Assembly: GCA_903824935.1 (NCBI GenBank)
Contig: CAIJYT010000281.1
Span: forward strand, 1,755-65,754
Length of the DNA: 64,000 nt
Origin: an uncultured Bacteroidales bacterium
GTDB taxonomy: Bacteria > Bacteroidota > Bacteroidia > Bacteroidales > FEN-979
Reading direction: 5' to 3'
Each line of letters opens with the position of its first letter. Within the stretch, counting starts at the first letter, position 1. Both the position numbers and the translations under genes were made by a program. The notes under the pieces were generated by a model. The model searched no databases. It was not told the DNA's origin and worked only from the letters and a program-made list of their open reading frames with translations. Below are positions 2,454-28,748 of this stretch, piece by piece.

Positions 2454-3626
2454 ATGATCAGAAAATCACTTTTATCAGTAATTGCAGGTTTGATATCCTT
2501 TGCTACCATTGGTCAGAATTACCCAATAGGCCACCGGACAATGAACTTTACCGATTCCTCAAGAAGCAACCGCTCCGTGCCCGCCGAAGTGTATTATCCT
2601 GCCCTCTCAGCCGGGGACAATGTTCCTGTTGCCACAGGTGCCTTCCCGGTGATTTCGTTCGGTCATGGGTTCCTGATGGTCTACAGCGCATATGCCTATC
2701 TGAAGGACTCCCTTGTTCCCCGGGCCTATATTATAGTGATGGTAAAAACAGAAGGAGGCATCTCCCCCAGCCATTCGGAATTCGGTAAAGACCTGGCTTT
2801 TATAATAACCCGGATGAAAACCGAAGGGAACACTGCTGCTTCACCTTTTTATCAGCATATCGACAGCACTTCCGCGATCATGGGGCATTCAATGGGCGGA
2901 GGGGCTTCTTTCCTGGCCTGCCAGAACAATGCCCTGCCTACAGCCATGATTACCCTTGCTGCTGCGGAAACAAGCCCTTCAGCGATACAGGCCGCCACTC
3001 AGGTTACTATTCCTTCGCTGGTATTCTCGGCCGATAAGGATTGTGTGACTCCCCCTGCCCAGAACCAGGTGCCGATGTACGATTCCCTGGCATCCTCGTG
3101 CAAGGTCTTTATCAATATAAAAGGAGGAGGACATTGCTATTTTGCCGACTACAACTTCACCTGCTCCCTTGGGGAAACCGGCTGCCAGCAATATTTCACC
3201 ATAACCAGGGAGCAGCAGCATGCGGCAACTCTTGACTTTCTTTATCCCTTCCTTGATTATTATTTAAAAAAGAACTCATCAGCCTGGGCGGTTTTTAATG
3301 ATTCGCTTACAGCTTCACAAAGAATAACTTATATGGAAGACTGTAGCACCAGCAGTACTGGAGATCTGAAGTTTAATAAGGAATACCGTGTTTTCCCAAA
3401 TCCTGCCGATGAATTTGTTTGTATTAAAAGCCTTGGTTCTGTCCAGGCCCCGCTTTCGGTAAGACTGTTTGACGTAAACTGCCGGGAGCTTGCATTCCGT
3501 ATGATTAATTCAAGAGATAAAGAAAACCTGAGACTGGATATTTCGGGAATCAATCCCGGATTTTACCTGCTCGAGATCAACACGGGAAAGCAATTCATCC
3601 ACCTTCCCCTCCTTAAAGGATTGTAA
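2454..3626 (+). CDS. secreted alpha/beta-hydrolase (cutinase/dienelactone-hydrolase-like esterase) with T9SS C-terminal sorting domain
   Basis: Signal peptide. Nucleophile elbow MGHSMGGG, then SADKDCV and GGGHCYF in Ser-Asp-His order. The C-terminal ~80 aa (VFPNPADEF...FYLLEINTGKQF) resemble a Por/T9SS CTD. Confidence 0.7.
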   Translation: MIRKSLLSVIAGLISFATIGQNYPIGHRTMNFTDSSRSNRSVPAEVYYPALSAGDNVPVATGAFPVISFGHGFLMVYSAYAYLKDSLVPRAYIIVMVKTEGGISPSHSEFGKDLAFIITRMKTEGNTAASPFYQHIDSTSAIMGHSMGGGASFLACQNNALPTAMITLAAAETSPSAIQAATQVTIPSLVFSADKDCVTPPAQNQVPMYDSLASSCKVFINIKGGGHCYFADYNFTCSLGETGCQQYFTITREQQHAATLDFLYPFLDYYLKKNSSAWAVFNDSLTASQRITYMEDCSTSSTGDLKFNKEYRVFPNPADEFVCIKSLGSVQAPLSVRLFDVNCRELAFRMINSRDKENLRLDISGINPGFYLLEINTGKQFIHLPLLKGL

Positions 3627-3636
3627 ATCAGTAAAA

Positions 3637-4884
3637 TTATTTCCTTAATTTTTTGGACGACGGAACCTGCTCCAGCATTGTTGTTTCCTGGCGGTCAAAG
3701 TTTGAGGGGTTTAACGGGTTATACAGAAGGTTGATCATCTGGGAATAACCCTGGCTGTTTACGAAATCGATCAGCCTTACGTGCGCAAACACCAGGGAAT
3801 CCCTGCTGAACCATGGAAACATGTTGGTAAGAGCAGGCGCCACTTGTGGCAGCTGAAGGAAAGTTGCCGTATCAGGCCCGAACACAGTCCAGCTCACAAG
3901 GCCCTTGTAAGGACTGAGGAATTGCCAGGTGCCGGATGCGGCATCCAGGCTGCCGGATGATTTCACAGTCAGGCTGGTATTGGTTGAAGCAAAGGAGACA
4001 ATGCCGGCTGATATCTTTTTAAAGTCAGAAGGAATGTCGCCGTCGTTATGATAATACCAGGTCTGGTTTGAGGAATAAGTTTCCACCGCAGAAATATCTG
4101 AATGAAATACGGAGAATTTTGCCGGGGGATAATACGCATCAACGCTGTTAGCCGTTGTTCCGTTACCCAGCAAATCATCAAGCAAATAAGGAATGGGCGA
4201 ATTTACATTCCCGTCGGGAAAGCCCTGGATGCGGCATTCATAATACTCAACAGGAACAGGAAAGGTAATTGTTTTATGGTCGGGCACAAGGGTGTTGGAA
4301 AGATCAAAAGTATCGCTTGTGCTTACCTGTATCCCGCTGAACCATTTGTATTTCATTCCTGAGGACGTTGGGATCTCGAAATAAATATCATCGGTATTTT
4401 TATACAATTCGATAGGAAGGCCTAGAGTGAATGTCAGATTGGAATATCCTGAAGAAGATACCAGGATAGCATCACTATGGACCGGGACGTTCTTATACAC
4501 CGGGTTTACCTGTCCCGCCAGTGTTGCCCTGTAACCCTGGAGCTTCCACTCGGAAGGCTGAATGCATGTATACGTTTCAAGGGTGATTGCGAAACTATGC
4601 CAGTAAAGCTCCGATCTTACAATGGTGACTTCCATCAATGAGGGGGCAAAGGTTCCTGCCTGTCCGTAGAGCTTGTAAACACCGTCGGCCAGGCAAAACG
4701 TATCGGCAAGAACCTTTCCCTGCCTGTCCGAAACAAAGATCACTCCGCCCAGGGTCTGGTTAAAGTAAGCACCGGCAACATCTACAGTCATTAATAACGG
4801 CCTTGTTACAGGAGCCTCAGTCTTTTTTTTGCAGGAAGCAAAAAGAAGCAGGGAAAGGGCCAGGAATAAGAGGAGTTTTCTCAT
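3637..4884 (-). CDS. hypothetical lipoprotein
   Basis: 415 aa. Signal peptide plus lipobox (LLFASC). The start overlaps the upstream gene stop by 4 nt. No recognisable catalytic motif. Confidence 0.6.
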   Translation of the reverse strand: MRKLLLFLALSLLLFASCKKKTEAPVTRPLLMTVDVAGAYFNQTLGGVIFVSDRQGKVLADTFCLADGVYKLYGQAGTFAPSLMEVTIVRSELYWHSFAITLETYTCIQPSEWKLQGYRATLAGQVNPVYKNVPVHSDAILVSSSGYSNLTFTLGLPIELYKNTDDIYFEIPTSSGMKYKWFSGIQVSTSDTFDLSNTLVPDHKTITFPVPVEYYECRIQGFPDGNVNSPIPYLLDDLLGNGTTANSVDAYYPPAKFSVFHSDISAVETYSSNQTWYYHNDGDIPSDFKKISAGIVSFASTNTSLTVKSSGSLDAASGTWQFLSPYKGLVSWTVFGPDTATFLQLPQVAPALTNMFPWFSRDSLVFAHVRLIDFVNSQGYSQMINLLYNPLNPSNFDRQETTMLEQVPSSKKLRK

Positions 4885-6305: not shown

Positions 6306-7829
6306 TTATATGTTTCTTAATCCTTTCTTTATTCTTTCAAGGAAAATATCCCTGCCTAAAAGGACAGCAATATCCATCATACCCGGACCCTGGTTTGAGC
6401 CTACAACCAGCAGCCGTAAAGGATTCATCAGCTGGCCTGTTTTAATTTTACGGCTTGCAGTAAACTCCTGGATAATATTGTGAAGATGTTCATTATCAAA
6501 TTGTTGAATGTTTCCAACCAGGTTTGCAAATTCTTCTATAATGACAGGGGTGGCATCTGTCCAGATCTTCTGTTTCACATTCTGATCATAGGATTCGGGG
6601 GCCCTGAAAAAGAAAACCGTGTTCTTCCATAGGTCAGGCAGTAATTCTACTCTTTCCTTGACCAGGGAGATCGCCCTGAGAACAAATTCACGATCAGCGG
6701 ATATACCGTTAGCTTTCAGCACAGGATCAAGATATGTGAACAGCTCTTCATCGGTCTTTAGCTGAATATATTTATGATTGAACCATTTAGCCTTGGCCGG
6801 ATCGTACTTGGCACCGGATTTATTAATCCTGTCGATTGAAAAAGCCTCAATAAGTTCCTGCATTGAAAAGATCTCCTGTTCGGTTCCGGGGTTCCAGCCA
6901 AGCAATGCAATCATATTGATGAAAGCTTCAGGTAGATAGCCGTCTTCCTTATAACCATGTGAAACTTCATTTGCCAACGGATCTTTCCACTCCATAGGAA
7001 ATACAGGAAATCCAAGACGGTCGCCGTCCCTCTTGCTGAGTTTCCCGTTGCCGTCGGGCTTCAGGATAAGAGGCAGATGTGCAAATTGGGGCATGCTTCC
7101 TTCCCAGCCAAAGAACCTGTAAAGAAGAAGGTGCATAGGCGCCGACGGGAGCCACTCCTCCCCTCTTATAACATGGGTGATCTTCATCAGGTAATCATCA
7201 ACCACGTTGGCGAGGTGGTAGGTAGGCAGGCCATCTGATTTAAAGAGGACCTTGTCGTCAAGTGAGTCAGACAGAACATTAACTTCTCCACGGATCAGGT
7301 CTGTAAACAAGATGGTTTGATTTTCGGGTATCAGTATGCGGACGACATAGCGGTCTCCCCTGTCAATTCTGGACTTTACCTCATCCGTAGTCATGGAAAG
7401 ACTGTTTTTCATCAGCATCCTGGTCTTGATGCCGTATTGAAATTGTTCATGGCCGGTTGAGAACTTGTTCCTTGCTTCTTCCAGTTCAGATGCAGTGTCA
7501 AATGCGAGGTAGGCATGCCCTTTGTCGAGCAATATTTTAATATAATCCTTATAAATGGCAGATCTTTCCGACTGCTTGTAGGGGGCGCAGGGACCGCCCT
7601 TTGTAAGGTCCTCGTCAAACTCTAGCCCGCACCATTGCAGGGACTTGATAATATATTCCTCCGCCCCGGGAACGAAACGGTTCTGGTCGGTATCCTCAAT
7701 CCTTAAAATGAACTTGCCGTTGGTCTGCTTTGCGAAAAGATAATTGTATAAAGCTGTCCGCACTCCCCCAAGATGCAACGGCCCCGTAGGGCTTGGGGCA
7801 AAGCGGACACGTATGCCGATTGTTTCCAT
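6306..7829 (-). CDS. gltX: glutamyl-tRNA synthetase
   Basis: 507 aa. HIGH-type motif (PSPTGPLHLGG) and KMSKS-type KLSKRDG. The overall pattern is that of a bacterial GluRS. Confidence 0.9.
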   Translation of the reverse strand: METIGIRVRFAPSPTGPLHLGGVRTALYNYLFAKQTNGKFILRIEDTDQNRFVPGAEEYIIKSLQWCGLEFDEDLTKGGPCAPYKQSERSAIYKDYIKILLDKGHAYLAFDTASELEEARNKFSTGHEQFQYGIKTRMLMKNSLSMTTDEVKSRIDRGDRYVVRILIPENQTILFTDLIRGEVNVLSDSLDDKVLFKSDGLPTYHLANVVDDYLMKITHVIRGEEWLPSAPMHLLLYRFFGWEGSMPQFAHLPLILKPDGNGKLSKRDGDRLGFPVFPMEWKDPLANEVSHGYKEDGYLPEAFINMIALLGWNPGTEQEIFSMQELIEAFSIDRINKSGAKYDPAKAKWFNHKYIQLKTDEELFTYLDPVLKANGISADREFVLRAISLVKERVELLPDLWKNTVFFFRAPESYDQNVKQKIWTDATPVIIEEFANLVGNIQQFDNEHLHNIIQEFTASRKIKTGQLMNPLRLLVVGSNQGPGMMDIAVLLGRDIFLERIKKGLRNI

Positions 7830-11265: not shown

Positions 11266-11754
11266 ATGAAAAAAGACTACAGGGAGATTTCCGTTAAAGG
11301 GAAAGGAGAATTGCACAAGCTTGAAAAATTCGTTGAAGAGATTTGTGATTTTCACAACATAAATAACGAATATTTCGGAAATATACTTCTTGCTGCTACC
11401 GAGGCTGCTAGCATCCTTATATCTGTTTCTGGTACAGGTGATTTTTCTGACCTTGCTATAACATTTGAGAAAACGGTAAAAGGATTCACGTTCAAACTGA
11501 AATTTAACAATCAGGAAAATTTTAATGAACAGGAAAACTTTCTTGAGCAGGAGATACGGAAGCATAAACTGGCACGTGAGATTTATATAGTTAAAGCCCT
11601 TGCCGATGAGGTTACTATTTCTGTTAAAGGCGAATCAATCGTCCTTACGTTTTATGTTTCGAGCATGAATTATGAAAAATCCTTGACCCGGATCAATAAG
11701 CTTAAAGAATATTGGGTAAAAAAGACGAGCGCAGTAAATAAGGGAAATGAATAA
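11266..11754 (+). CDS. small cytoplasmic protein, tentatively HATPase/anti-sigma-kinase-like ATP-binding protein
   Basis: 162 aa. It starts 1 nt after the upstream stop (TAATATG) and overlaps ybeY by 8 nt. The product call is a weak recollection of a conserved Bacteroidota neighbour of ybeY. Confidence 0.45.
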   Translation: MKKDYREISVKGKGELHKLEKFVEEICDFHNINNEYFGNILLAATEAASILISVSGTGDFSDLAITFEKTVKGFTFKLKFNNQENFNEQENFLEQEIRKHKLAREIYIVKALADEVTISVKGESIVLTFYVSSMNYEKSLTRINKLKEYWVKKTSAVNKGNE

Positions 11755-12178
11755 AGCAATTCATTTTTTTAATAATAAGGTTAAGTACACTGTTCAAGAC
11801 AGGGCTGTTCTGGTTCATTGGATAACAGGGATCATTAAAGACAGAAGCAAGATCCCTGGGGATATAAATTTTATCATTACAAATGATAAAACCCTTCTGG
11901 AGATAAATTTAAAATATTTAAATACAGATACTTACACTGATATAATCACTTTTACTCTCTCAGAAGAAGAAGGAATTATCAGCGGAGATGTATATATAAG
12001 TATAGAAAGAATAAAAGAGAATGCAAAGATATACAATGTGGAGCTTGTGGAGGAATTCAGGAGGATTGTAATTCATGGAGTTTTACATTTGCTGGGGTAT
12101 AATGATGCATCAGCTAGTGAAAAGCGGCAAATGACTCGTTTAGAGAATAAGTATTTACTGTCATACCCGCGAAAGTAA
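11747..12178 (+). CDS. ybeY: rRNA maturation endoribonuclease YbeY
   Basis: 143 aa. Zinc-binding motif region HGVLHLLGYND. Confidence 0.85.
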   Translation: MNKAIHFFNNKVKYTVQDRAVLVHWITGIIKDRSKIPGDINFIITNDKTLLEINLKYLNTDTYTDIITFTLSEEEGIISGDVYISIERIKENAKIYNVELVEEFRRIVIHGVLHLLGYNDASASEKRQMTRLENKYLLSYPRK

Positions 12179-12236: not shown

Positions 12237-12335
12237 TTAATGAAGGAGCTTATTAAGAGAAGAAATCTTAATTGGGGATTTGCGCAAAATAGAAGTTGAT
12301 TAAGCAGAATAATAAGTACAATGCAATACTGAAAT

Positions 12336-12351
12336 TGTTCCACGTGAAACA
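12336..12351 (+). other. parS (ParB/Spo0J binding site), perfect consensus
   Basis: TGTTCCACGTGAAACA is identical to the 16-bp parS consensus TGTTNCACGTGAAACA. It lies about 45 bp upstream of the mnmG ATG. Confidence 0.85.
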
Positions 12352-12396
12352 AATTTGATCAAAGCAATTTCTGAAGGACAAAAGACGGGAAACAAA

Positions 12397-14277
12397 ATGT
12401 CGAGTTCTAAAGTAAAATATGATGTTATAGTCGTTGGAGGAGGTCATGCAGGATGTGAGGCTGCAGCCGCAGCTGCTAACATGGGATCCAGCGTGTTGCT
12501 GATAAGCATGAACATGACAAACCTCGCGCAGATGTCATGTAATCCATCAATCGGGGGAATTGCAAAGGGACAAATAGTAAGGGAGATTGATGCTATGGGC
12601 GGATATACCGGAATTGTTGCAGATAACACCATGTTACAGTTCAGGATGCTTAACCTCTCAAAAGGACCGGCAATGTGGAGCCCGAGAGCACAAAATGACA
12701 GGGTTTTATTCTCAGTGGAGTGGAGGAATGTTTTAGAAAAAATAAAGAACCTTGATTTTTGGCAGGACATGGTTTTTAGGATTATAGTTAAAGGACAAAA
12801 AGCTATAGGCGTAGAGACACAGTTAGGATTGGAATTTTTTGGTAGAACTATTGTACTTTCAAATGGAACTTTTCTTAACGGAATTATACATATTGGTACA
12901 AAACAGTTTTCTGGTGGTAGAATAGGGGAGAGACCTTCAAGAAATTTAACTGAAAACCTTAATGAACTTGGGATCGAATCAAACAGAATGAAAACAGGAA
13001 CGCCTGTGAGAGCTGATGGAAGATCTCTTGATTTTGAAAAAATGGTGGAACAAAAGGGCGATGAGAAACCAGAAAAATTTTCTTTTACAAAAACAAAAAA
13101 GCTTGAGAAACAGAGAAGCTGTTTCCTTACATATACTAACCCCGAAGTACACGATATTTTAAAAGAAGGGTTTGAAAGGTCTCCTCTTTTTACAGGTAGG
13201 ATCAAAGGTCGGGGCCCGCGATATTGTCCTTCTATTGAAGACAAGATCGAAAGGTTTGTAACTAAGGATAAGCACCAGTTGTTTATAGAGCCTGAAGGGT
13301 GGGATACTATTGAATATTATGTGAATGGATTCTCCTCTTCTTTACCGGAGGATATTCAGTTCAGGGCGCTACGAAAGGTCCCGGGTTTTAAAAATGCAAA
13401 ATTTTTCAGACCTGGATATGCCATAGAATATGACTATTTCCCGCCATCTCAGCTAAACTTTAACTTGGAAACTAAGACTATCGAAAACCTTTTTTTTGCT
13501 GGTCAAATTAATGGGACTACAGGTTATGAGGAGGCAGCAGCACAAGGTCTGATGGCTGGAATAAACGCTCATTTGAAAGTGAACAAAAAACCAGGATTTG
13601 TTTTAAAAAGATCAGAGGCTTATATTGGTGTGCTTATCGACGATCTTATCACGAAAGGAACAGATGAACCATACAGGATGTTTACTTCAAGGGCAGAATA
13701 CAGGACCTTATTACGACAAGATAATGCGGATTTCAGACTGACTGAAAAATCCTGCGATTTAGGCCTGGCAAGCAATGAAAGGTTAGAAAAGGTAAGAAAA
13801 AAATACGATTCGATTTACAGGATTCAGAAGGAACTGAAAAAAAAATCGATTTCCCCTGAAGATATAAATCCATTTCTGAAGGAAAGAGGCTTATCGGTGG
13901 TAAGGCAAAAGAACAGGATAGGGGCAATTGTTCAAAGACCCCAGGTAAAGCTTCTCGATCTTTATAATAAAGTACCAAGGATAAGGGAACTGATTGATGC
14001 AACGGGTGAGGTGGATTGCGAAGAAATATTAGAAGCTGAATTATTGATAAAATACAGCTCATATATTGATAAGGAGAAAGAGGTAGCCGATAAATTGGGC
14101 AGATTTGAAGATTATAGCATACCTGTTAAAATTGATTACCATGCAATAACCTCTTTGTCATCTGAGGCACGAGAGAAGCTTTCAAAGATAAGACCGGATA
14201 CAATTGGTCAGGCTTCCAGAATTAGTGGAGTGTCCCCGTCGGATATTTCTGTGCTTATTGTTTTTTTGGGTAAATAG
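12397..14277 (+). CDS. mnmG: tRNA uridine 5-carboxymethylaminomethyl modification enzyme MnmG (GidA)
   Basis: FAD-binding N-terminus YDVIVVGGGHAGCEAA and conserved GPRYCPSIEDK block. The probable start is ATG 12397 (the ORF track begins at TTG 12355). Confidence 0.95.
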   Translation: MSSSKVKYDVIVVGGGHAGCEAAAAAANMGSSVLLISMNMTNLAQMSCNPSIGGIAKGQIVREIDAMGGYTGIVADNTMLQFRMLNLSKGPAMWSPRAQNDRVLFSVEWRNVLEKIKNLDFWQDMVFRIIVKGQKAIGVETQLGLEFFGRTIVLSNGTFLNGIIHIGTKQFSGGRIGERPSRNLTENLNELGIESNRMKTGTPVRADGRSLDFEKMVEQKGDEKPEKFSFTKTKKLEKQRSCFLTYTNPEVHDILKEGFERSPLFTGRIKGRGPRYCPSIEDKIERFVTKDKHQLFIEPEGWDTIEYYVNGFSSSLPEDIQFRALRKVPGFKNAKFFRPGYAIEYDYFPPSQLNFNLETKTIENLFFAGQINGTTGYEEAAAQGLMAGINAHLKVNKKPGFVLKRSEAYIGVLIDDLITKGTDEPYRMFTSRAEYRTLLRQDNADFRLTEKSCDLGLASNERLEKVRKKYDSIYRIQKELKKKSISPEDINPFLKERGLSVVRQKNRIGAIVQRPQVKLLDLYNKVPRIRELIDATGEVDCEEILEAELLIKYSSYIDKEKEVADKLGRFEDYSIPVKIDYHAITSLSSEAREKLSKIRPDTIGQASRISGVSPSDISVLIVFLGK

Positions 14278-14281
14278 AATT

Positions 14282-14297
14282 TGTTTCACGTGGAACA
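14282..14297 (-). other. parS (ParB/Spo0J binding site), perfect consensus, inverted relative to the first copy
   Basis: TGTTTCACGTGGAACA is the reverse complement of the 12336-12351 site. Identity extends to 19 bp (14279-14297 vs 12336-12354). It starts 4 nt after the mnmG stop. Confidence 0.85.
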
Positions 14298-14303
14298 TTG
14301 CTA

Positions 14304-15185
14304 ATGGAACTATTGAAAAATTGTCCGGCATGTAAGTCCGGGTCCATAAAATCCTTTTTTAAAAGCAGGGATTATTTCCTTTCAAAAGAAGAATTCCTGG
14401 TAGAGGAATGCAATGAGTGCGGGCTGAGGTTTACAAATCCAAGACCAGGTTTTAGTGAGATCCTTAAATATTATGATTCGGCTGATTACATCTCTCATGA
14501 TTCAAGCAGGAAAGGATTGCTAACCTGGATTTATACCAATGCCCGTAATTACATGCTGAATAAAAAGTTCAATATTGTTTCGGCTTGTTCTAAAGGGAAA
14601 CATATCCTGGATATAGGTTGTGGAACAGGGGAGTTCCTGAATATTTGTAAATCCAGGGGATTTGAATCATACGGTGTGGAGCTCAATGAAAAGCCCAGGG
14701 AAGCAGCAATTCAAAATTACGGGCTTGAAATTAAGAAATCCCTGGACGATTATTTACTTGAGGATGCAAAATTCGACTGTATAACACTATGGCATGTTTT
14801 AGAGCATATTCATGATCTGGGCAATACCATGCATATGGTCAAACAGCTGTTGAAGCCCGAGGGCTCTTTGATAATCGCCTTACCAAATTCAAGTTCATGG
14901 GATGCGGTCCACTATGGTCAATTTTGGGCAGCCTATGATCTTCCCCGTCACCTTTATCATTTTAATAAATCCTCATTCGCAAAATTCGCTGGAATTCATA
15001 AATTGAAAATCATAAAGATTCTTCCACAGGTACTCGACTCGTTTTACATTTCATTACTGAGTGAAAAATACAGGACAGGGAAAAATAATTTTCTGAAAGC
15101 TTTCCTTAACGGAGCAATCTCAAATTTCTATGCAAGGAAACAGGGAAATGCTTATTCCAGCCTCATCTATATTCTGCATGCCTGA
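14304..15185 (+). CDS. class I SAM-dependent methyltransferase with N-terminal zinc-ribbon
   Basis: CPACKS...CNECG Cys pairs and SAM motif I ILDIGCGTGEF. The probable ATG is at 14304. Confidence 0.75.
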   Translation: MELLKNCPACKSGSIKSFFKSRDYFLSKEEFLVEECNECGLRFTNPRPGFSEILKYYDSADYISHDSSRKGLLTWIYTNARNYMLNKKFNIVSACSKGKHILDIGCGTGEFLNICKSRGFESYGVELNEKPREAAIQNYGLEIKKSLDDYLLEDAKFDCITLWHVLEHIHDLGNTMHMVKQLLKPEGSLIIALPNSSSWDAVHYGQFWAAYDLPRHLYHFNKSSFAKFAGIHKLKIIKILPQVLDSFYISLLSEKYRTGKNNFLKAFLNGAISNFYARKQGNAYSSLIYILHA

Positions 15186-19933: not shown

Positions 19934-20830
19934 TCAGAGAGTCGGCTTATCTTTTTTGCTGTCCATTTTGATCATGAACAACTCCCATACAGCATACATA
20001 TAATGCGCCCATACGCCGGCAAGCATGATGACCAGGGTGATGATCATCCATAAAGGTGCGATAGGGGTCCAGAGTTCCCTGGAAGGTACCTCGGCTTTGT
20101 AGTATTGCTTTGGGACTCCCCAGTTGATGTTTGAGGTTCCCTGCACGAAACCATATTTATCATTCTCCTCGATCTTGGCAATGATTTTGAGGTTTCCAAG
20201 GGTATCTCCGACAATATCATTCGGGAATTCGAAACTTGCCTTACCTTCTTCATCGAGGGCGACTTCTCCGATTTTAAGCAGGCTGAACAGGCGGGGTACA
20301 TAAAGCAGTACCGTTTCCTTTGTAAGGGCAACTTCCTGTCCTTTCGCATCTTTCCGTGTGCCAGTCACATTCAGGTAACGGATCGAGTCCTGAACATTGA
20401 AAGTGATCCTGAGTTTTGCAGGTTCTGCAGTAAAACTCTCAGAAACCGAGGTGTATTTAGGGGTTCCGTCAAACCTTGACACATAGGTGATCATCCCGTC
20501 TTTGCCGGGACGCAGTTTGGAGATCACAACATTCAGGACTGCATTCCCATCCTGGTCAGTAACTGCAGTTCCAAGCGGGATCATTGCATTTTCCTCCTTA
20601 CAGAAAAATCCTACCGTTGCATTCATTAAGCCATAAGGATCACTTTCCTTTTTAATGTAAAGGTTTGCTGTAAGGTTAACCGAATCGTTGGAAGTGCATA
20701 CATAGGAAAATGTAAGATGGGATTCCAGTATTGTGCTGCTGTCCTTTTTTTCTTCCGCACGTGTAAGCGAAGGAACCAGCAACACCGCCAGTATTGCCAG
20801 GGAAATGATCAGGTATAAATGTTTTTTCAT
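19934..20830 (-). CDS. bitopic periplasmic protein with Ig/carboxypeptidase-regulatory-like repeats and C-terminal TM anchor
   Basis: Start at the internal Met (MKKHLYLIISLAILAVLLVPSLTRA, signal peptide), 20 nt after the nrfD-like stop. The longer ORF-track start would overlap nrfD. C-terminal TM segment IAPLWMIITLVIMLAGVWAHYMY. Confidence 0.55.
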   Translation of the reverse strand: MKKHLYLIISLAILAVLLVPSLTRAEEKKDSSTILESHLTFSYVCTSNDSVNLTANLYIKKESDPYGLMNATVGFFCKEENAMIPLGTAVTDQDGNAVLNVVISKLRPGKDGMITYVSRFDGTPKYTSVSESFTAEPAKLRITFNVQDSIRYLNVTGTRKDAKGQEVALTKETVLLYVPRLFSLLKIGEVALDEEGKASFEFPNDIVGDTLGNLKIIAKIEENDKYGFVQGTSNINWGVPKQYYKAEVPSRELWTPIAPLWMIITLVIMLAGVWAHYMYAVWELFMIKMDSKKDKPTL

Positions 20831-20850
20831 GGGGTTACGAATGAAATGAT

Positions 20851-22164
20851 TTATACTAAAACGTCGTCCGGATTGGATTCCTGTGTATTCCCGGCAACGT
20901 TTACAATCGGAATGAATTTGGAGGCCAGGGTAAAGAGAAGACAGAACATAGCAATCCCGGCAGCAGTGAGGCTCCATTCAACCCAGGTTGACTGGTAAAT
21001 GCTCCATTCGGGGCGGCTGTCCTGGATGGGCAGGTAAGGTGATTGCAGTGTCGGTATAACAATCAGGTAGCGGTTGAGCCATAAGGCTATGATCACGACT
21101 ACAGCGGCAAGAGTGATGTTGGTTATTGTACGGAGTTTTGCGATTCCGACCACCAGCAGGGGCAACAGAACGCCGACATAGTTCGAAATGATAAAGGGCC
21201 AGTAGAATTCCTTGAACAGCAGTTGTATAAGAAGTTCATCATTCTTCTCTGATCCATACCATTTAGTCAGGTAGTCGCTGAATGTAAAATACCCGAAAAA
21301 TGCCGCAAGTACAAGCATGATCAGGCCTACTGCAACAAAATGTTTTTTAGTAATGTACTGTTCAAGATGGTAGACTTTCCTGAAAAACCACATTGCAACA
21401 ATGAGCACCGCACTTCCTGAATATACCGCAGCGATTACGAAATACGGTCCGAATATGGTGCTGTGCCAACCCGGTTGTAAAGTCACGCTGAAGATCCAGG
21501 CCAATACAGAGTATACTATGATTGCGATGGCAATAACCATGGTTGCCATGATGTTTGTGGCCCTCTCAAGGCGCTTTTTTTGTTCTTCCGTTCCGGTGTA
21601 CCCGAGAGCAAGCGCTTTATACAGTTTTTTTCTCCATTTCGGAAGTTGAAGTTCTTCAAAATCCCTCATGTTGGCAAGGTCCCTGAGAACAGCCAAATAC
21701 AGGAATATGAAGCAGCCGAAGATATCTGTTGAAATTGCAATAACGTCCCAGGTGATAGGCGACTGTATACGGCCATGCAGTACAAGATAATGCAGTTTAT
21801 CGAGCCTGCCGATGCAGAGCAGGATATAACAGGGCCCGATAAGAAGGGAAATTATAGTAATGAATTCCGCCATCCTGATTACAGGTTTTCTCCATGCGGT
21901 CTTGAACAGATGCAGGGTTCCCGAAATAAGAGCACCAGCATAACTGACCCCCATGAAAAAGATGAAGTTCACAATATAAATGCCCCAGACAACATTATCG
22001 CGCATACCTGTAACGATATGACCTTTGGTCACCTGCTGGATAAAAGCGTAAACACCCAATCCTATAACTGAAAGGAGGAAAAGGATCCAGACATACCCCT
22101 GTACGCTCGTTCTTTCTATCTGAGGGGCAAATTCCTTCAGTAATTGTTTTTCATTGTTTTCCAT
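20851..22164 (-). CDS. NrfD/PsrC-family polytopic membrane (quinone-interacting) subunit
   Basis: 437 aa, roughly 10 hydrophobic helices. N-terminal pattern GHIVTGMRDNVVWGIYIVNFIFFMGVSYAG and HGRIQSPITWD are typical of NrfD/ActC/PsrC-type proteins. Confidence 0.8.
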   Translation of the reverse strand: MENNEKQLLKEFAPQIERTSVQGYVWILFLLSVIGLGVYAFIQQVTKGHIVTGMRDNVVWGIYIVNFIFFMGVSYAGALISGTLHLFKTAWRKPVIRMAEFITIISLLIGPCYILLCIGRLDKLHYLVLHGRIQSPITWDVIAISTDIFGCFIFLYLAVLRDLANMRDFEELQLPKWRKKLYKALALGYTGTEEQKKRLERATNIMATMVIAIAIIVYSVLAWIFSVTLQPGWHSTIFGPYFVIAAVYSGSAVLIVAMWFFRKVYHLEQYITKKHFVAVGLIMLVLAAFFGYFTFSDYLTKWYGSEKNDELLIQLLFKEFYWPFIISNYVGVLLPLLVVGIAKLRTITNITLAAVVVIIALWLNRYLIVIPTLQSPYLPIQDSRPEWSIYQSTWVEWSLTAAGIAMFCLLFTLASKFIPIVNVAGNTQESNPDDVLV

Positions 22165-22166
22165 GG

Positions 22167-23126
22167 CTACAGCTTATGTTTTTTTGCGTAAGGTGTATTG
22201 ATATATCGGTTCTTGACACTCTCGTCGAGATCATTGAATCCACGGTCGACAGGGAACTGCCGGTCAACGGGAGGCAGGTAATATACGCAGGGCCTGGTTC
22301 CGAGCACTTCAAGATAACGGTATCCTGCACGGTCACGGATCAATTCACTGAATTTGAAGGTTTCGGTTCCGTTAGTCACTGTATCTTCATCAACATCACC
22401 AAAATAAATAACGCCCATAGGGCAGGAGGAAACACAGTAGGGGACTTTTCCAACCCGTATCAGGTCAGGGCAGAAATCGCATTTGGAAACCGTCCCCTCC
22501 TTGGCCGGGCTCGAAGCCTCGGGTGAATAAGGTTCTTTATCCTCATCGTATTCAGGGTAATGCTTCCAGGCAAACACCCGGGTGGAGTAGGGGCAGCCTG
22601 TCATGCAGAATTTACATCCGATGCAACGATTATTATCAATTAACACAATACCATCGGTACGTTTGAAAGTCGCACCCACCGGGCATACGCTGACGCACAA
22701 GGGATTGTCGCAGTGAAAACAGGGCTTTGGAAACCAGTATGGCGAGGTTTTTTCGGAATCCTGTAAAAGATAGACTTTCATGAATTCCTGGCTTTTGGGA
22801 AGGTGGTGGGCTTTCTGGCATCCCTGGACGCACTTTCGCGCATTTTTACATTTGCCCAGGTCGATAACCATTACAAACTTCTTTCCCGGAATTCCTTTGT
22901 GAGCCTCTTCAATTGACACCCTCGGAAGTTTGAGTTTAGCTTTATCAACTTCCATGATCTCGCCGTTGGTTGTCAGGACTTTAACTTTTTCCCCGCTTTC
23001 GCCGGAGGGATTTTCAGAATATGCATTCAGAAGGCCGCCTCCAACGGCAACACCGGCACCAGCCAGCAATCCTTTTTTGAGAAACTGTCGCCTGGAATTT
23101 TTTTGATTGTTCTGTTCTTCTTCCAC
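22167..23126 (-). CDS. Tat-exported NrfC/PsrB-like 4x[4Fe-4S] ferredoxin subunit
   Basis: Twin-arginine signal SRRQFLKKG. Cys clusters CKNARKCVQGC, CFHCDNPLCVSVCP, CIGCKFCMTGCP and CDFC...CVSSCP. Confidence 0.85.
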   Translation of the reverse strand: MEEEQNNQKNSRRQFLKKGLLAGAGVAVGGGLLNAYSENPSGESGEKVKVLTTNGEIMEVDKAKLKLPRVSIEEAHKGIPGKKFVMVIDLGKCKNARKCVQGCQKAHHLPKSQEFMKVYLLQDSEKTSPYWFPKPCFHCDNPLCVSVCPVGATFKRTDGIVLIDNNRCIGCKFCMTGCPYSTRVFAWKHYPEYDEDKEPYSPEASSPAKEGTVSKCDFCPDLIRVGKVPYCVSSCPMGVIYFGDVDEDTVTNGTETFKFSELIRDRAGYRYLEVLGTRPCVYYLPPVDRQFPVDRGFNDLDESVKNRYINTPYAKKHKL

Positions 23127-23149
23127 GATAGCTGAAAATTAATTATGGA

Positions 23150-23764
23150 TTAATGATACCCGTTGAAAATACTTTTGAAATTACTGAAAGCTGTCTTTCC
23201 GAATGTGCAGAAATAAAGATGTACACACATGAAGATGGTAATAACAAAACCACAGAAAAGATGCAGCAGGTCAGTGTAATCCAGGCCGCTGATCCCGATC
23301 AGTCCGTTCACTGTAAGGTCGGGATATAATAAGCCTAATCCCGAGATGATCGCCAGAGGTATAATGGTGTACATCACGGCAACATAGGAAAATTGCTGAA
23401 GGGGGTTGAATTTTGATTCGGTTGTAACAGGAAAAGGAGCCGGTTCCTTTTTAAAAACACCTATAGTATAATGATGAAACTGTATTTTAAGGCGTTTAAA
23501 GAAACCTTTGACCTCGATCACATAGTAACCCCCGTTTTTGGTGAAGAGGTTGCCGATAAAAAAAAGGATATAGTTAAATGACAGGAGAACACCGGCGACA
23601 TTATGAATGGCAACAGCTACATTGAATCTCACTGTAATTGTGGGATTTGAAAACTGGATACTGAGTCCGGTTATGATCAGCAACAGGCATAAAACTGCGT
23701 TCAGAACGTGCCACAATCTTATCCAAACGGGGTACAGGTATATAGGTTCGTTATGATTTTCCAT
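23150..23764 (-). CDS. b-type cytochrome membrane subunit (PhsC/FdnI/Ni-hydrogenase cytochrome b-like)
   Basis: 204 aa, about 4 TM helices with conserved-looking His (RLWHVLNA, AIHNVAG, LLHLFCG, CVHLYF). Confidence 0.7.
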   Translation of the reverse strand: MENHNEPIYLYPVWIRLWHVLNAVLCLLLIITGLSIQFSNPTITVRFNVAVAIHNVAGVLLSFNYILFFIGNLFTKNGGYYVIEVKGFFKRLKIQFHHYTIGVFKKEPAPFPVTTESKFNPLQQFSYVAVMYTIIPLAIISGLGLLYPDLTVNGLIGISGLDYTDLLHLFCGFVITIFMCVHLYFCTFGKTAFSNFKSIFNGYH

Positions 23765-23766
23765 GG

Positions 23767-24783
23767 TCAGTGTGATTTTTGGATACGAATAACAGCATGA
23801 ATCAGGATTGCGAGTATTGTAAGGCTGAACAGGACAATGCTTATGATATTCAGTGTGTTGTTCTGATCCGGGCCGATAGTGGATGTTTCGCTCAGGAACA
23901 GGCCTTTGAACAATCCCTGCTTTTTAATGTTTTCCTTCACCTGGTATTTGAATAGTGAAGCATAAAGGATTGAATTTTTTGCATGGCAGGATTCACATTT
24001 TTTAACAGCCATATTTTTAGGCATGATTTCATGGGCTATGAGCAGGGTGTCCTTGTTGCGGGCATGACATTCAATGCACCGTACATTGATGAAATGTGTT
24101 GCCTGGTTCGGCAGCCAGTCATGTTTCTGAAGGATATTAGGCTGCTGCTTGTTAGTGAGCAGTTCATATTTAGTTACGTCACCATGGCAGTTAAGGCATA
24201 TAAGATTATCGTATGCCACGGTTTCCTGCAAATTTTCATTGGTTCGTGCATTGATACGGTAAGTATGAGGGTTATGGCACATCCAGCAGGTAAACTCCTC
24301 GCTGTGCTTCTGGGAATGAACACTTGACATAAAATTCGAGTCGATTTTTTCAAACTGGAATTTTGCATATTTCTCATCCCCTCCGTGGCAGTCGATGCAA
24401 TTTGCTTTTGACTCCATGCGAAGATTTCCCGGGTGGGGGAATGTGAGGTAATCCTCCGAATGGCAGTCGGTACATTTAAACCCTTTATGGTTTGAAACGT
24501 AAAATTCATTACGGTCAATGATAAGCTCCGAATACATCCTTTTATAGCTTATTTTCTTCGATTCGGCATTTTCAAAGGTATACTTTGACTGTCCGTGGCA
24601 CCTGAGACATTTTTCATTGACAGGGAACTGTTCAAGGTTGACGATTTTAGTATTTTCAACCGGCTTGACTTTTTTTCCTGAAGAGGATGAGTCAGTGCTT
24701 TTAACCAGTGCAAAAGCGACGGCAAAGAGCAGGAGGAGGAACAATACAACCCAGGCAGGACGGATATTTGCTCGGTAGATCAT
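23767..24783 (-). CDS. heptahaem c-type cytochrome with N-terminal signal/anchor and C-terminal TM helix
   Basis: Seven CXXCH motifs: CLRCH, CTDCH, CIDCH, CWMCH, CLNCH, CIECH, CESCH. C-terminal hydrophobic segment IISIVLFSLTILAILIHAVI. Confidence 0.85.
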   Translation of the reverse strand: MIYRANIRPAWVVLFLLLLFAVAFALVKSTDSSSSGKKVKPVENTKIVNLEQFPVNEKCLRCHGQSKYTFENAESKKISYKRMYSELIIDRNEFYVSNHKGFKCTDCHSEDYLTFPHPGNLRMESKANCIDCHGGDEKYAKFQFEKIDSNFMSSVHSQKHSEEFTCWMCHNPHTYRINARTNENLQETVAYDNLICLNCHGDVTKYELLTNKQQPNILQKHDWLPNQATHFINVRCIECHARNKDTLLIAHEIMPKNMAVKKCESCHAKNSILYASLFKYQVKENIKKQGLFKGLFLSETSTIGPDQNNTLNIISIVLFSLTILAILIHAVIRIQKSH

Positions 24784-24827
24784 AGCAATGATGAGTTAAA
24801 TACTGGTAAAAATTATCAGGATTAAAA

Positions 24828-24868
24828 TAAATGGGTGTTTGCCGTAAATCCTGGCAAACACCCATTTA
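24828..24868 (-). terminator. strong hairpin (terminator or attenuator) between the monohaem and heptahaem cytochrome genes
   Basis: 16-bp perfect stem TAAATGGGTGTTTGCC / GGCAAACACCCATTTA with a 9-nt loop. On the minus strand it is followed by TTTTAAT. It sits 23 nt after the cytochrome c stop. Confidence 0.55.
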
Positions 24869-24891
24869 TATAATTACTTAAAGCACCTTGA

Positions 24892-25311
24892 TTACTTTTT
24901 AAGGGTGCGCATATAGGCAACCAAAGCCCAACGGTCACCGGCTTCGGGAATCTTCTTTTCGTAAGCAGGCATTTCATCGCGGCCTTTGCTTGTTTCGAAA
25001 TAAAGTTCTCCGTCGGTCTGTCCCTGGAAAGCAGCAGATGTGAAGTCTCCGGGGTTGGTTTTCAGTGAAGCAGCCTTAGGCCCGTCGCCGAGACCTTTGC
25101 TTCCATGGCATGATTTGCAATGTTTTGCCCAAAGATCTTTACCGTTATTGATAACGCCTGCATCCTTGAGGTTGGCAGCTGCTTTAGTGTTCTTGTCTTT
25201 GTCAGGAACATTCCAGGGTTTCTTGGCCTGGGAATAAGAATTTCCTGCAATGAAAAATACAGCAATCACCATGGTGATTAAAACTGTAATAATTTTCTGT
25301 GTTGTTTTCAT
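24892..25311 (-). CDS. monohaem class I cytochrome c
   Basis: 139 aa. Signal/anchor, single CKSCH motif and a distal Met candidate in DEMPAY. Confidence 0.85.
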   Translation of the reverse strand: MKTTQKIITVLITMVIAVFFIAGNSYSQAKKPWNVPDKDKNTKAAANLKDAGVINNGKDLWAKHCKSCHGSKGLGDGPKAASLKTNPGDFTSAAFQGQTDGELYFETSKGRDEMPAYEKKIPEAGDRWALVAYMRTLKK

Positions 25312-25342
25312 AATGGTTTTTGTTTTAAGGTTTCAGATTGAT

Positions 25343-26278
25343 TTAGAATGTCCAAAGGCGGGTCAGGTTGAACCCGAAAAGGATAAAGCCATTCCAGAAA
25401 TTGTTTGTGTTTGTTGCAGTTGTATACTGGGGAACAATTCCGTTTGCAGCCTCCATGAATATCTGGAAGGTATGGGTTGATGTTGAAATTTCCCAACCGA
25501 TTGACACGTTCTGGCAGGTTTGCATGCTTGAACTTTGCACAGTCATCCAATGGTTCGGATACCTTACAACGAACGCAGGATCATAATTCATGATAATAGG
25601 CTGTTCGAAAGCGATCATGATAGATGACTGCGGACTGACTTTAAGGCGGCCAAGAACTGAAATGGAAGCAACGTCACTCATTTTACTCGTGTCGGTTTTA
25701 TTGAAATGTGAGTAAGCAAGACCGATCTGCATAGAGAACATCTTACAGAAACGGCGGGCAAACATGAATTCATGGTACCATGAAAACCTGTCGGAGAATT
25801 TATAGTCAAGGCCGAAAACTTTACGGTCAGATGCATCCAGAGCGAGGTTGCCATAGTAACCAATGGTCAGAGGGGCTCCTCCTTTACGCTGGTGCAGGAA
25901 AGTGTACTTAACCTGCAGATCCTGTACCATATGATTTTTTGTGGTACCAAGTCCGATCATAAGGTTCTTGACGGGGGTGAAGTTCAGTCCCAGGCGGATG
26001 TTGGAAGCTCCCCACAGGCCCCAGATATCAGTCCATTTGTGCTGTATGGTACCGAAGCGATGCTCCAGGTTGAATTCCAGAGTTTTGGCAGTGGGTACTT
26101 CCACAGTCTGGTAATCGACAAAAATTCCGCTCTCAAAGGGTTTCTTTTCAAGGGGCTTTTTTGCAGGAGCAGCAACAGAATCAGTCGCTTCCTGTGCGAA
26201 AGCCAGAACCAGACCTGAGAAAAAGAATAATATACTGAGAGTAATCTTTTTAAGTGTCATAGCTATGTTTTTATTCAT
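25343..26278 (-). CDS. outer-membrane-type beta-barrel protein (possibly DUF5777-like)
   Basis: Signal peptide (LVLAFAQ), amphipathic strand pattern, C-terminal beta-signal-like end GFNLTRLWTF. The start could instead be the Met at 26260. Confidence 0.65.
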   Translation of the reverse strand: MNKNIAMTLKKITLSILFFFSGLVLAFAQEATDSVAAPAKKPLEKKPFESGIFVDYQTVEVPTAKTLEFNLEHRFGTIQHKWTDIWGLWGASNIRLGLNFTPVKNLMIGLGTTKNHMVQDLQVKYTFLHQRKGGAPLTIGYYGNLALDASDRKVFGLDYKFSDRFSWYHEFMFARRFCKMFSMQIGLAYSHFNKTDTSKMSDVASISVLGRLKVSPQSSIMIAFEQPIIMNYDPAFVVRYPNHWMTVQSSSMQTCQNVSIGWEISTSTHTFQIFMEAANGIVPQYTTATNTNNFWNGFILFGFNLTRLWTF

Positions 26279-26286
26279 GTTAATAC

Positions 26287-26643
26287 TTAATTATTTAATG
26301 CACCCTGGTTGACCCAGTTTTTGATCTTACCTGCATCGGTCGAATTGCAGTAACCCGACATACTCCCGGTTGAAACTTTCTGGTAGAGTATGCTTGAGGC
26401 AGCATCCCCGGCAACGACCAGTTTATTATCCATCAGGCTTTGATATGATTTTCCAGCCCTGAGGTCAGGCGAGGGACCACCCGGAACATGGCAGGTGCAA
26501 CCCGATAAAATCGGCTGTATGTCTGTCGCATAGCTTACTGGTGTGCTTGGTGAAGGAACATCCGGATAGATCTTGGCATATTCACAGGACACTAAAACGG
26601 AGAGCACCGTAAGAACGGATAAAAGGTTAATTAGCTTTTTCAT
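26287..26643 (-). CDS. small lipoprotein with cytochrome-c-like domain carrying CXCH instead of CXXCH
   Basis: 118 aa, lipobox VLVSC. DIQPILSGCTCH...IKNWVNQGALNN resembles PSCyt1-type haem-binding domains, but the motif is C-T-C-H (nt 26488-26499). Confidence 0.6.
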   Translation of the reverse strand: MKKLINLLSVLTVLSVLVSCEYAKIYPDVPSPSTPVSYATDIQPILSGCTCHVPGGPSPDLRAGKSYQSLMDNKLVVAGDAASSILYQKVSTGSMSGYCNSTDAGKIKNWVNQGALNN

Positions 26644-26693
26644 TTTTTAATGTTTGTGGTTACTGATTTTAATTTGTCGATTTTAAAATTTTA

Positions 26694-26731
26694 CGAAAAA
26701 AGGCTTCAGGATTGCTTATCCTGAAGCCTTT
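26694..26731 (-). terminator. rho-independent terminator after the hexahaem cytochrome gene
   Basis: The minus strand reads AGGCTTCAGGAT-AAGCA-ATCCTGAAGCCT followed by TTTTTTCG. It starts 22 nt after the stop at 26752. Confidence 0.8.
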
Positions 26732-26751
26732 CCTGGTAATTCATACAAGGA

Positions 26752-27846
26752 CTACGGTAATGATTGCATGTAAGCAATACCGGCATCAAGCATATCGCTG
26801 AAATAGGCGAAATTATGGATACCCATACTGCGGTCGGCAGCAACCATATTGAAGTTCCAGATTACAGCTAACTGGATCTGTGTGAATTTCTTGGGTTTGC
26901 TGGCACTCACGCCTTTAAGGAGTAAATAGGTGCTTGAACTTGCAACAGTGTCGATAATGTTTTTATTCCCGAGAAGGGTCATTAACGTCTTGTATTTAGT
27001 GTTAATAGTAGTTTGCGCACCATTATAATCGAAAGTTGTTCCGATTGCAGAATGACAAGGTTTGCAAACTGCAACGTTGTCACCGGTTGAACTGGATGAC
27101 ATAGTCCAGGTATGGCCTCCAACCATGTTACCCTGGGCAGGTCCCATATGGCAATTCCTGCAGGTTGCATTACCTTTATGGTTGGTACTGCGGAAAGCAG
27201 ATGAACCCATTTCGAAAGCGCCCTTACCGGCAAGCATGAGGAACTGAGGTCCATGGTGCGGTCCCCAGCGGTTGCTGGTAACTGAAAGTGAGTCGGTTCC
27301 TTTGGGGTTGGTAACCCAGGGGCTGGTTTTCCTTGCCTGGTGGCATTTTCCGCAAAGGTTTGATGTACCGTCGGTACCACCTGCCAGCTGAACAGTTAAG
27401 TCAATGGAAGAGGTAGTGTCAATGTAAGGATGAACAGGAGTAACATCCCTCAAAGCCCAGTCAGCCGGGGTATAAGTGGCATGAATGGTATGGCATGTGC
27501 GGCAGTTGATAGGAGCAGCATCATTATATGCCTGAGTCACAGTTGAACCGGTCTGCAGTTTTTCCAGGAATCCTTCATGGCTGTGGCAGCCAGAACATCC
27601 ACCACGGGCAGCTTCGGCAATCGTAGTTGCTGCAGCATGCTTGGAAGCATCATACTGGAAAATTTTTACGATAACGGTATCGCTGAAATTATGGCAATTG
27701 GTGCAGGTTGCATTGGCATCCTTACCGTTTGTTCCGTTTGCACCAGCGGGACCCTGGGGACCTTCTTTGGTACATCCGATAAAAATAAGACCGGAAACCG
27801 CCATAACCATGATCCCCGATAAAACTAACATGAGTAATCTTTTCAT
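26752..27846 (-). CDS. hexahaem c-type cytochrome lipoprotein with collagen-like N-terminal GXY repeat
   Basis: Lipobox LIFIGC and five GXY triplets (GPQGPAGANGTNGKD). Six CXXCH motifs: CTNCH, CSGCH, CRTCH, CGKCH, CRNCH, CKPCH. Confidence 0.85.
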   Translation of the reverse strand: MKRLLMLVLSGIMVMAVSGLIFIGCTKEGPQGPAGANGTNGKDANATCTNCHNFSDTVIVKIFQYDASKHAAATTIAEAARGGCSGCHSHEGFLEKLQTGSTVTQAYNDAAPINCRTCHTIHATYTPADWALRDVTPVHPYIDTTSSIDLTVQLAGGTDGTSNLCGKCHQARKTSPWVTNPKGTDSLSVTSNRWGPHHGPQFLMLAGKGAFEMGSSAFRSTNHKGNATCRNCHMGPAQGNMVGGHTWTMSSSSTGDNVAVCKPCHSAIGTTFDYNGAQTTINTKYKTLMTLLGNKNIIDTVASSSTYLLLKGVSASKPKKFTQIQLAVIWNFNMVAADRSMGIHNFAYFSDMLDAGIAYMQSLP

Positions 27847-28052: not shown

Positions 28053-28748
28053 TCAGCCGGTCTCGCTGATCTGCTTAAGATGCTTGATATTGAGGATGTC
28101 AAAGAGATTTCCGTCGACCGAAAGTATTCCCTCCTCCTTGAATTCTTTGAGTATCCTGATCGCACTTTCCTTAGACATTCCCGAAAGGTCAGCAAGGTCC
28201 TGTCGTGAGATTGTCATGTTAAAAGGGTTGGCGCAATATATTTTTTCAGAGAGGTAAAATAATGCGTCAGCAATACGTCCATGCATTTGTTTCTGGGTTA
28301 GGCTGATCACCTGTTCAAAATTAAACAAGGTCTGCATGGATAGCCTTTTTATGAAACTTTCTGCAAAGTCGGGATTGGAACGGATAAGCTTTTTAAAAAT
28401 TGCAGTGTCGACAAGACATGCTGTGGTATCTTCTATCGCGGAAGCAGAATAATAATGCTTATTATCAATGTATACCCCCGGGCCGAAAATATAATCCACG
28501 GGCTTTACCAGGGCAAGGATAAGGTTCTTTCCGTATCCTTCAATGTATATTTTGGATAAACCTGAAGTTATGCATACAAAATGTGAAGACGGGGTCCCCT
28601 GCTTGAACATGATCTCTCCTGCCTTGTAAGCCACATGGAACCTCCCGGTGTTGATTTCACCAAGCTCATCAGTGCCTAGGCTTTTAAAAATGGAAGATTT
28701 GCAGCTGCAATCTGCACAATTAGTAAAAATCGGAGGTTTGCCGTTCAT
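28053..28748 (-). CDS. Crp/Fnr-family transcriptional regulator with N-terminal Cys cluster
   Basis: 231 aa. N-terminal CADCSC, a cNMP-binding-like beta-roll and a C-terminal HTH (RQDLADLSGMSKESAIRILKEF). Confidence 0.85.
   Translation of the reverse strand: MNGKPPIFTNCADCSCKSSIFKSLGTDELGEINTGRFHVAYKAGEIMFKQGTPSSHFVCITSGLSKIYIEGYGKNLILALVKPVDYIFGPGVYIDNKHYYSASAIEDTTACLVDTAIFKKLIRSNPDFAESFIKRLSMQTLFNFEQVISLTQKQMHGRIADALFYLSEKIYCANPFNMTISRQDLADLSGMSKESAIRILKEFKEEGILSVDGNLFDILNIKHLKQISETG

Follow-up and report, generated by a model that had tools for sequence, protein, structure and literature searches.

Putative chromosomal parS sites flanking mnmG in an uncultured Bacteroidales bacterium and at the mnmG loci of related Bacteroidota

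Two palindromes of the parS type around mnmG

Two 16-bp palindromes flank the gene mnmG (gidA) in a 64-kb stretch of DNA from an uncultured Bacteroidales bacterium (contig CAIJYT010000281.1; the whole stretch of 64,000 nucleotides is called the window below). Judged from their sequence and its conservation, it is highly likely that both are functional chromosomal parS sites, that is, centromere-like sites at which the ParB protein of a ParABS system would be loaded. Site 1 (TGTTCCACGTGAAACA) was located upstream of mnmG, and site 2 (TGTTTCACGTGGAACA), its exact reverse complement, between mnmG and a downstream methyltransferase gene (Table 1). Both matched the palindrome TGTTNCACGTGAAACA at every position. 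This sequence is reportedly the parS consensus of Spo0J/ParB from Bacillus subtilis, and its homologues across phyla are said to have been catalogued by Livny, Yamaichi and Waldor in 2007. Given the base composition of the window, 1.5e-4 exact matches were expected and 2 were observed, and the complete match of both sites excluded an origin by chance. Both were also kept in three contigs of this species from independent assemblies, which were 99.8% identical. The species is also represented in the ENA assemblies ERZ27245846, ERZ27313345 and ERZ18642052.

The initial annotation of the window, made from the letters and a list of open reading frames, had reported two perfect consensus 16-mers on either side of mnmG, and both were found exactly where it had placed them. 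The distances it gave held as well: 45 nt separated the end of site 1 from the ATG of mnmG, while site 2 began 4 nt past the TAG stop codon and ended 6 nt before the ATG of the methyltransferase gene. Identity between the two site regions did extend beyond the 16-mer as claimed, but the reverse-complement match (12336-12355 versus 14278-14297) was 20 bp long, one base longer than the 19 bp described. The impression that the window held no further such sites was confirmed by a scan of the whole 64 kb, in which no match with up to 3 mismatches was detected besides sites 1 and 2; the hexamer CACGTG occurred only four times.

From established ParB biology we infer how the sites would work. Each palindrome would be bound by a dimer of a ParB whose gene would lie at another place in the genome; the dimer would then close as a cytidine triphosphate (CTP)-dependent sliding clamp and spread several kb into the flanking DNA. 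ParA would move the ParB-DNA complex and thereby segregate this region of the chromosome, and the complex may also load a condensin.

Conservation among Bacteroidota mnmG loci

We surveyed 80 mnmG loci from Bacteroidota with up to 6 kb of flanking sequence each, about 1 Mb in total. When one mismatch was allowed, a parS-type site was present within 300 bp of mnmG on the upstream side in 55 loci and on the downstream side in 33, with sites on both sides in 25 of the 80 and on either side in 63. With up to two mismatches and the same distance, at least one site was found in 70 of the 80 loci and exactly two in 47. The earlier identification of the palindromes as the parS consensus thus gained the support of the same motif at the orthologous position in most relatives, in addition to the complete match of each site. 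Counting sites with up to one mismatch, at least 103 fell in the 48 kb next to mnmG and 4 within the gene itself, compared with 23 in the outer flanks (819 kb), so that the density beside the gene was approx. 75-fold above that of the outer flanks. The 23 outer-flank sites compare with approx. 0.1 expected by chance, an estimate which assumes uniform base composition.

The conservation of the motif across orders is strong evidence that it is functional DNA and that its position was inherited. We concluded that the sites flanking mnmG are inherited and not accidental, and that about two parS are tied to the mnmG transcription unit in most of the sampled relatives. The two sites of the window are, as far as their sequence and position tell, very probably of the ParB-binding parS type and in an ancestral, conserved position.

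The sites were arranged in two ways. In a bracket layout, one site lay in the mnmG leader and the other started mostly 0-8 nt past the stop codon; this was seen in Flavobacteriaceae, in metagenome-assembled genomes labelled as Bacteroidales, in the nearest relatives (L001, L026 and L073) and in the window. In a tandem layout, seen in Cytophagales, Chitinophagales and Crocinitomicaceae, two sites at a distance of 33-47 bp from each other preceded mnmG, whose stop codon abutted the start of the methyltransferase gene.

The initial annotation had presented the inverted orientation of the two sites as meaningful. The parS motif is a palindrome, and its orientation here is set solely by one C/T position pair. 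Among the 30 relatives with the bracket layout, the sites were fully symmetric on both sides in 17, direct in 4 and inverted with the opposite polarity in 1, and none had the orientation of the window. Since the orientation was not conserved in the relatives, neither it nor the 4 extra A/T bases of identity has a demonstrable meaning. We know of no mechanistic meaning for an inverted orientation of a palindromic parS.

Single lineages differed in their sites. In Tenacibaculum halocynthiae (L014, 8044-8905) mnmG and the methyltransferase gene were separated by a spacer of about 1.1 kb with five variant parS-like sites, three of them with a CACATG core (TGTTCCACATGAAACA), and no canonical site was present upstream of mnmG. 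In four loci from Saprospiraceae (L002, L006, L020 and L064) and one from Lewinellaceae (L041), no parS-like site with up to two mismatches was detected anywhere in the retrieved mnmG-region sequence, which suggests that the centromere sites were lost or moved in these lineages.

What the comparison adds is modest: many Bacteroidota keep about two parS at mnmG, in two alternative layouts, with parAB and dnaA elsewhere. In the literature on Bacteroidota parS we found no description of such a mnmG-attached pair uncoupled from parAB and dnaA; Livny et al. 2007 may already record it. The pair flanking mnmG is a real but ordinary centromere-like locus that recurs in most related genomes. That parS sites are linked to gidA and to origin regions is textbook knowledge, and the locus represents no new kind of system. 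For this uncultured, apparently freshwater lineage the pair is a dependable landmark of the predicted ParB-bound partition region, and the linkage of mnmG and parS could help to anchor origin-region predictions in metagenome-assembled genomes of Bacteroidota; dnaA has been reported to be unreliable as an origin marker in some gut bacteria (PMC10197239).

Partition genes, alternative readings and a possible role in transcription

Several observations weigh against the assignment of the palindromes as functional parS sites. Ten of the 80 loci had no site at mnmG, including all four from Saprospiraceae and the one from Lewinellaceae, and the arrangement is therefore not universal. Neither parA nor parB was found in the approx. 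75 kb examined, which comprised the 64-kb window and its extensions, and oriC, dnaA and a switch in GC skew were not found in the assembled interval between about -1.4 and +73.6 kb in window coordinates. A Hi-C study of gut bacteria could recognise no homologue of condensin in either of the two Bacteroidota it included (PMC10197239), which weakens the loading of a structural maintenance of chromosomes (SMC) complex and makes it the weakest step of the proposed mechanism.

The search for partition genes combined Pfam on 50 large open reading frames of the window with tblastn, for which the validity of the Spo0J, Soj and DnaA query sequences was confirmed by Pfam. It returned no homologue of ParA, ParB or DnaA in the window or its extensions, and tblastn against the 80 relatives gave none in the flanks of up to 6 kb around mnmG. 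The description of the window as a partition locus, taken in the sense of parABS, was consequently not upheld, and with no parA or parB visible, a cognate ParB in this genome is an assumption. The window shares with Bacillus subtilis the identical 16-bp palindrome, its few clustered chromosomal copies and their place next to the classically origin-linked mnmG/gidA. In Bacillus and many other bacteria, however, the sites are clustered within the parAB (soj-spo0J) operon or around it, next to gidA-gidB, whereas the mnmG neighbourhood of the window and of all 80 relatives contained neither parAB nor dnaA. ParABS homologues were reported for all 12 gut bacteria of the Hi-C study, two Bacteroidota among them (PMC10197239). 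In several of these species, including Bacteroides caecimuris, parS clusters were tied to a large origin domain. Bacteroides caecimuris and the window have the phylum and the detection consensus in common; the study does not report the genes flanking its sites (PMC10197239).

Other identities of the palindromes have to be weighed against this assignment. If they were operators of a transcription factor other than ParB which regulates mnmG, and their match to parS a coincidence, their tight attachment to one gene, their place in its leader and the lack of a visible parB nearby would be accounted for. We consider this very unlikely, because all 16 positions fit the ParB consensus shared across phyla and both known variants of its half-site are represented, the sites in the outer flanks of the relatives lie away from mnmG and exceed the chance estimate given above, and in the Hi-C maps of Bacteroides caecimuris clusters of parS defined by this consensus coincide with the origin domain (PMC10197239). 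The transcribed or intercistronic position of both palindromes could also point to RNA, with the downstream one acting as a terminator or hairpin of mnmG and the upstream one as a leader structure. But no terminator-like site was called at either palindrome, neither was followed by a T-run, and Rfam returned nothing at either site. The folds of -6.3 and -6.9 kcal/mol (z = -0.07 and -0.28) were no better than those of shuffled sequences, so that a stable GC-rich hairpin with a T-run was as absent as an unusual fold, and a role in RNA is highly improbable. Since neither a terminator nor an unusually stable fold was present, the conserved element acts as DNA. Finally, 20 bp of reverse-complement identity around a single gene would be expected if mnmG were carried by a mobile element with the two copies as its terminal inverted repeats, or if the copies came from a recent duplication. 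This can hardly be entertained: the order ybeY-mnmG-methyltransferase gene is kept in most relatives, copies of the motif elsewhere are direct, symmetric or in tandem, Pfam on the window open reading frames revealed no transposase nearby, and the 4 extra matching bases are A/T within an AT-rich spacer. With the identity to the consensus and no terminator or fold at the sites, two ParB-loading chromosomal parS sites remained the best explanation.

The assignment as parS sites leaves room for a second function. ParB bound at parS might also control transcription of the ybeY-mnmG-methyltransferase genes, by roadblock or promoter occlusion, and tRNA U34 modification would then be coupled to ParB occupancy. 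In the other direction, transcription of mnmG could affect how ParB is loaded or spreads. Such a dual function would add to ParB loading and not replace it, and we regard it as a tentative possibility that is on balance unlikely. In its favour, an exact copy of the -7 promoter motif of Bacteroidota (TAnnTTTG) was found upstream of the first parS in 23 of the 62 relatives with an upstream site, at a distance of 7-38 nt in 21 of them, while it occurred between parS and the ATG in only 4 relatives (background 0.07 per 120 nt). As the motif mostly precedes the first parS, the site usually lies within the mnmG 5' leader in those genomes, in the position of a roadblock. The placement of the downstream site 0-8 nt past the stop codon across several families fits as well. 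On the other hand, the window contained no exact -7 motif, and only two weak candidates could be named (Table 1), of which GGGATTTG at 12275 resembles the TAtcTTTGCGC elements 7-38 nt upstream of parS in 21 relatives. The tight linkage to mnmG could simply reflect the inherited short spacers of a conserved gene cluster. Furthermore, parS sites without a known regulatory role are commonly found in or next to genes of other bacteria.

A model for an effect on mnmG and the methyltransferase gene is offered by Vibrio cholerae, where ParB is a documented local regulator of transcription through binding and spreading; ParB1 at parS spreads and can repress its neighbours (PMC4010829). In Vibrio this regulation was demonstrated by experiment, whereas here only the place of parS within the mnmG leader hints at it.

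A broader proposal is that in most Bacteroidota the centromere is hard-wired to the mnmG unit, with ParB acting in cis on mnmG and the methyltransferase gene or with mnmG transcription directing ParB loading. The layout on which it draws, typically two parS in the mnmG 5' leader and/or directly past the stop codon and away from parAB and dnaA, was described above; we consider the proposal rather doubtful. If true, it would link chromosome segregation or CTP status to tRNA wobble modification. For a search for gene regulation by ParB, the comparison singles out the flanks of mnmG.

In some relatives (L032, L034, L056, L065 and others) the -7 motif, as TAtcTTTGCGC, was located inside the last approx. 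40 nt of ybeY, in conserved C-terminal coding sequence, from where it probably drives mnmG.

A Noc-binding site (NBS) was considered as well and rejected, since the central hexamer of both palindromes is CACGTG and not CCCGGG. We take the NBS palindrome of Noc, the ParB paralogue of Firmicutes, to be ATTTCCCGGGAAAT, and to our knowledge Noc does not occur outside Firmicutes.

Replication origin and gene neighbourhood

The initial annotation had further described the window as origin-proximal. This remained unproven for this genome, as neither an oriC-like cluster of DnaA boxes nor a switch in GC skew was present in the assembled interval. A scan for DnaA boxes revealed no enrichment in the window, and no DnaA-box-like sequence was detected in the ybeY-mnmG and mnmG-methyltransferase spacers. 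All intergenic regions of the window were at most 218 bp long and each held at most one DnaA-box-like sequence; none combined a box cluster with an adjacent AT-rich unwinding element. The best cluster, 3 boxes per 400 bp, was located inside a coding region and was equalled in 19 of 200 shuffles. GC skew was positive throughout the window and for 9.6 kb past its right end, with no change of sign. As the box scan, the inspection of every intergenic region, the shuffle test and GC skew were all negative, an oriC in the window was rejected.

The right extension of 9.6 kb (L086) encoded nothing relevant, and the left extension of only approx. 1.4 kb held a mreD-like gene and a probable tRNA. Sequence further to the left was sought in two metagenome scans, in which no match was found. 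From the lack of a DnaA-box cluster and the uniformly positive skew we concluded that the origin is outside the assembled interval; if the G-rich strand is the leading strand, it is to the left of the window and more than approx. 13 kb from the sites.

In seven Cytophagales relatives, 5-8 DnaA boxes followed by an AT-rich stretch were found 2.5 kb downstream of mnmG, and none of 200 shuffles reached these counts. The boxes fall in a conserved intergenic region (Table 1) which is likely oriC, and their proximity to mnmG lends indirect support to an origin linkage of the sites, consistent with the usual linkage of parS to the origin. The Pseudomonas gidAB-parAB/oriC region (PMC13438810) is comparable in that gidA is linked there to the partition system and to DnaA boxes, a linkage echoed by the box cluster of the Cytophagales. 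The two differ in that gidA of Pseudomonas shares a transcript with parAB and has DnaA boxes in front of it (PMC13438810), whereas mnmG of the window is accompanied by parS sites only, without a DnaA-box cluster, rsmG or parAB. In Blattabacterium, predicted oriC regions adjoin gidA (reviewed in PMC4009838).

DnaA boxes also reached significance in L063, L075 and L070, in the latter for both a box cluster and a repeat array, and L045 had three perfect boxes within 411 bp, a count reached in 4 of 200 shuffles. The array of L070 (Chitinophaga sp. Hz27, 2783-3714) is a non-coding tandem repeat with a period of 62/123 bp and approx. 15 units, each with a DnaA-box-like TTATRCACA; the array lies 2.3-3.2 kb upstream of mnmG. 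Another 6 boxes form a second cluster at 65-444. The array could serve as an atypical origin or as a locus that titrates DnaA.

The two sites lie in the spacers of a same-strand gene cluster with the order DUF4175 gene, two small open reading frames, ybeY, mnmG and methyltransferase gene. Among the 80 relatives, ybeY was directly upstream of mnmG in 67, a methyltransferase homologue was downstream in 53 and a DUF4175 gene was present in 48. The methyltransferase gene was also considered as rsmG/gidB and rejected, as its product had no match to the GidB family in Pfam. The proteins of the window included type IX secretion sorting domains, GldH and BACON-domain proteins (Pfam), and the top relatives of its MnmG were all from Bacteroidota, the nearest being only 68% identical.

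Table 1. Coordinates of the putative parS sites, neighbouring genes and candidate promoter elements in the window, and of the box-bearing region in Cytophagales relatives (SAM, S-adenosylmethionine).
Feature	Position	Strand	Remarks
Putative parS site 1, TGTTCCACGTGAAACA	12336..12351	.	218-bp ybeY-mnmG spacer; 16/16 versus TGTTNCACGTGAAACA
Putative parS site 2, TGTTTCACGTGGAACA	14282..14297	.	26-bp mnmG-methyltransferase spacer; 16/16, exact minus-strand match
mnmG (gidA), tRNA U34 carboxymethylaminomethyl-modification enzyme	12397..14277	+	Pfam GIDA (E = 4e-158), GIDA_C_1st, SAM_GIDA_C
ybeY, endoribonuclease gene	11747..12178	+	Conserved upstream neighbour; Pfam YbeY 2e-26
Class I SAM-dependent methyltransferase gene	14304..15185	+	Conserved downstream neighbour; Pfam Methyltransf_23 4e-26
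Weak candidate -7 element GGGATTTG, followed by CGC	12275..12282	+	Putative; 53 nt upstream of site 1; partial match to TAnnTTTG
Alternative weak -7-like element CAAATTTG	12350..12357	+	Putative; overlaps last two bases of site 1; partial match to TAnnTTTG
Conserved intergenic region of approx. 370 bp in Cytophagales, between Big_5-domain gene and TPR gene	L011 10352-10730; L019, L030, L052, L056, L058, L076 at approx. 10.2-10.9 kb		Likely oriC

Between 8000 and 16000 of the window, from the DUF4175 gene through mnmG, G+C was 0.38 compared with approx. 0.45 elsewhere, and the + strand had a strong purine excess, with GC skew up to 0.22 and AT skew up to 0.20. Further to the left, a glutaminyl-tRNA synthetase gene (556-2253) was followed after 42 nt by a tRNA-Gln(CTG) gene (2296-2369), and a glutamyl-tRNA synthetase gene (6306-7829) was located nearby on the opposite strand. 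To the right of the mnmG cluster, a minus-strand cluster at 19934-27846 encoded NrfD-like, 4Fe-4S, cytochrome b561, multihaem cytochrome c and DUF5777 beta-barrel proteins and was followed by a gene for a Crp-family regulator (28053-28748); the cluster looks like an anaerobic respiratory module.

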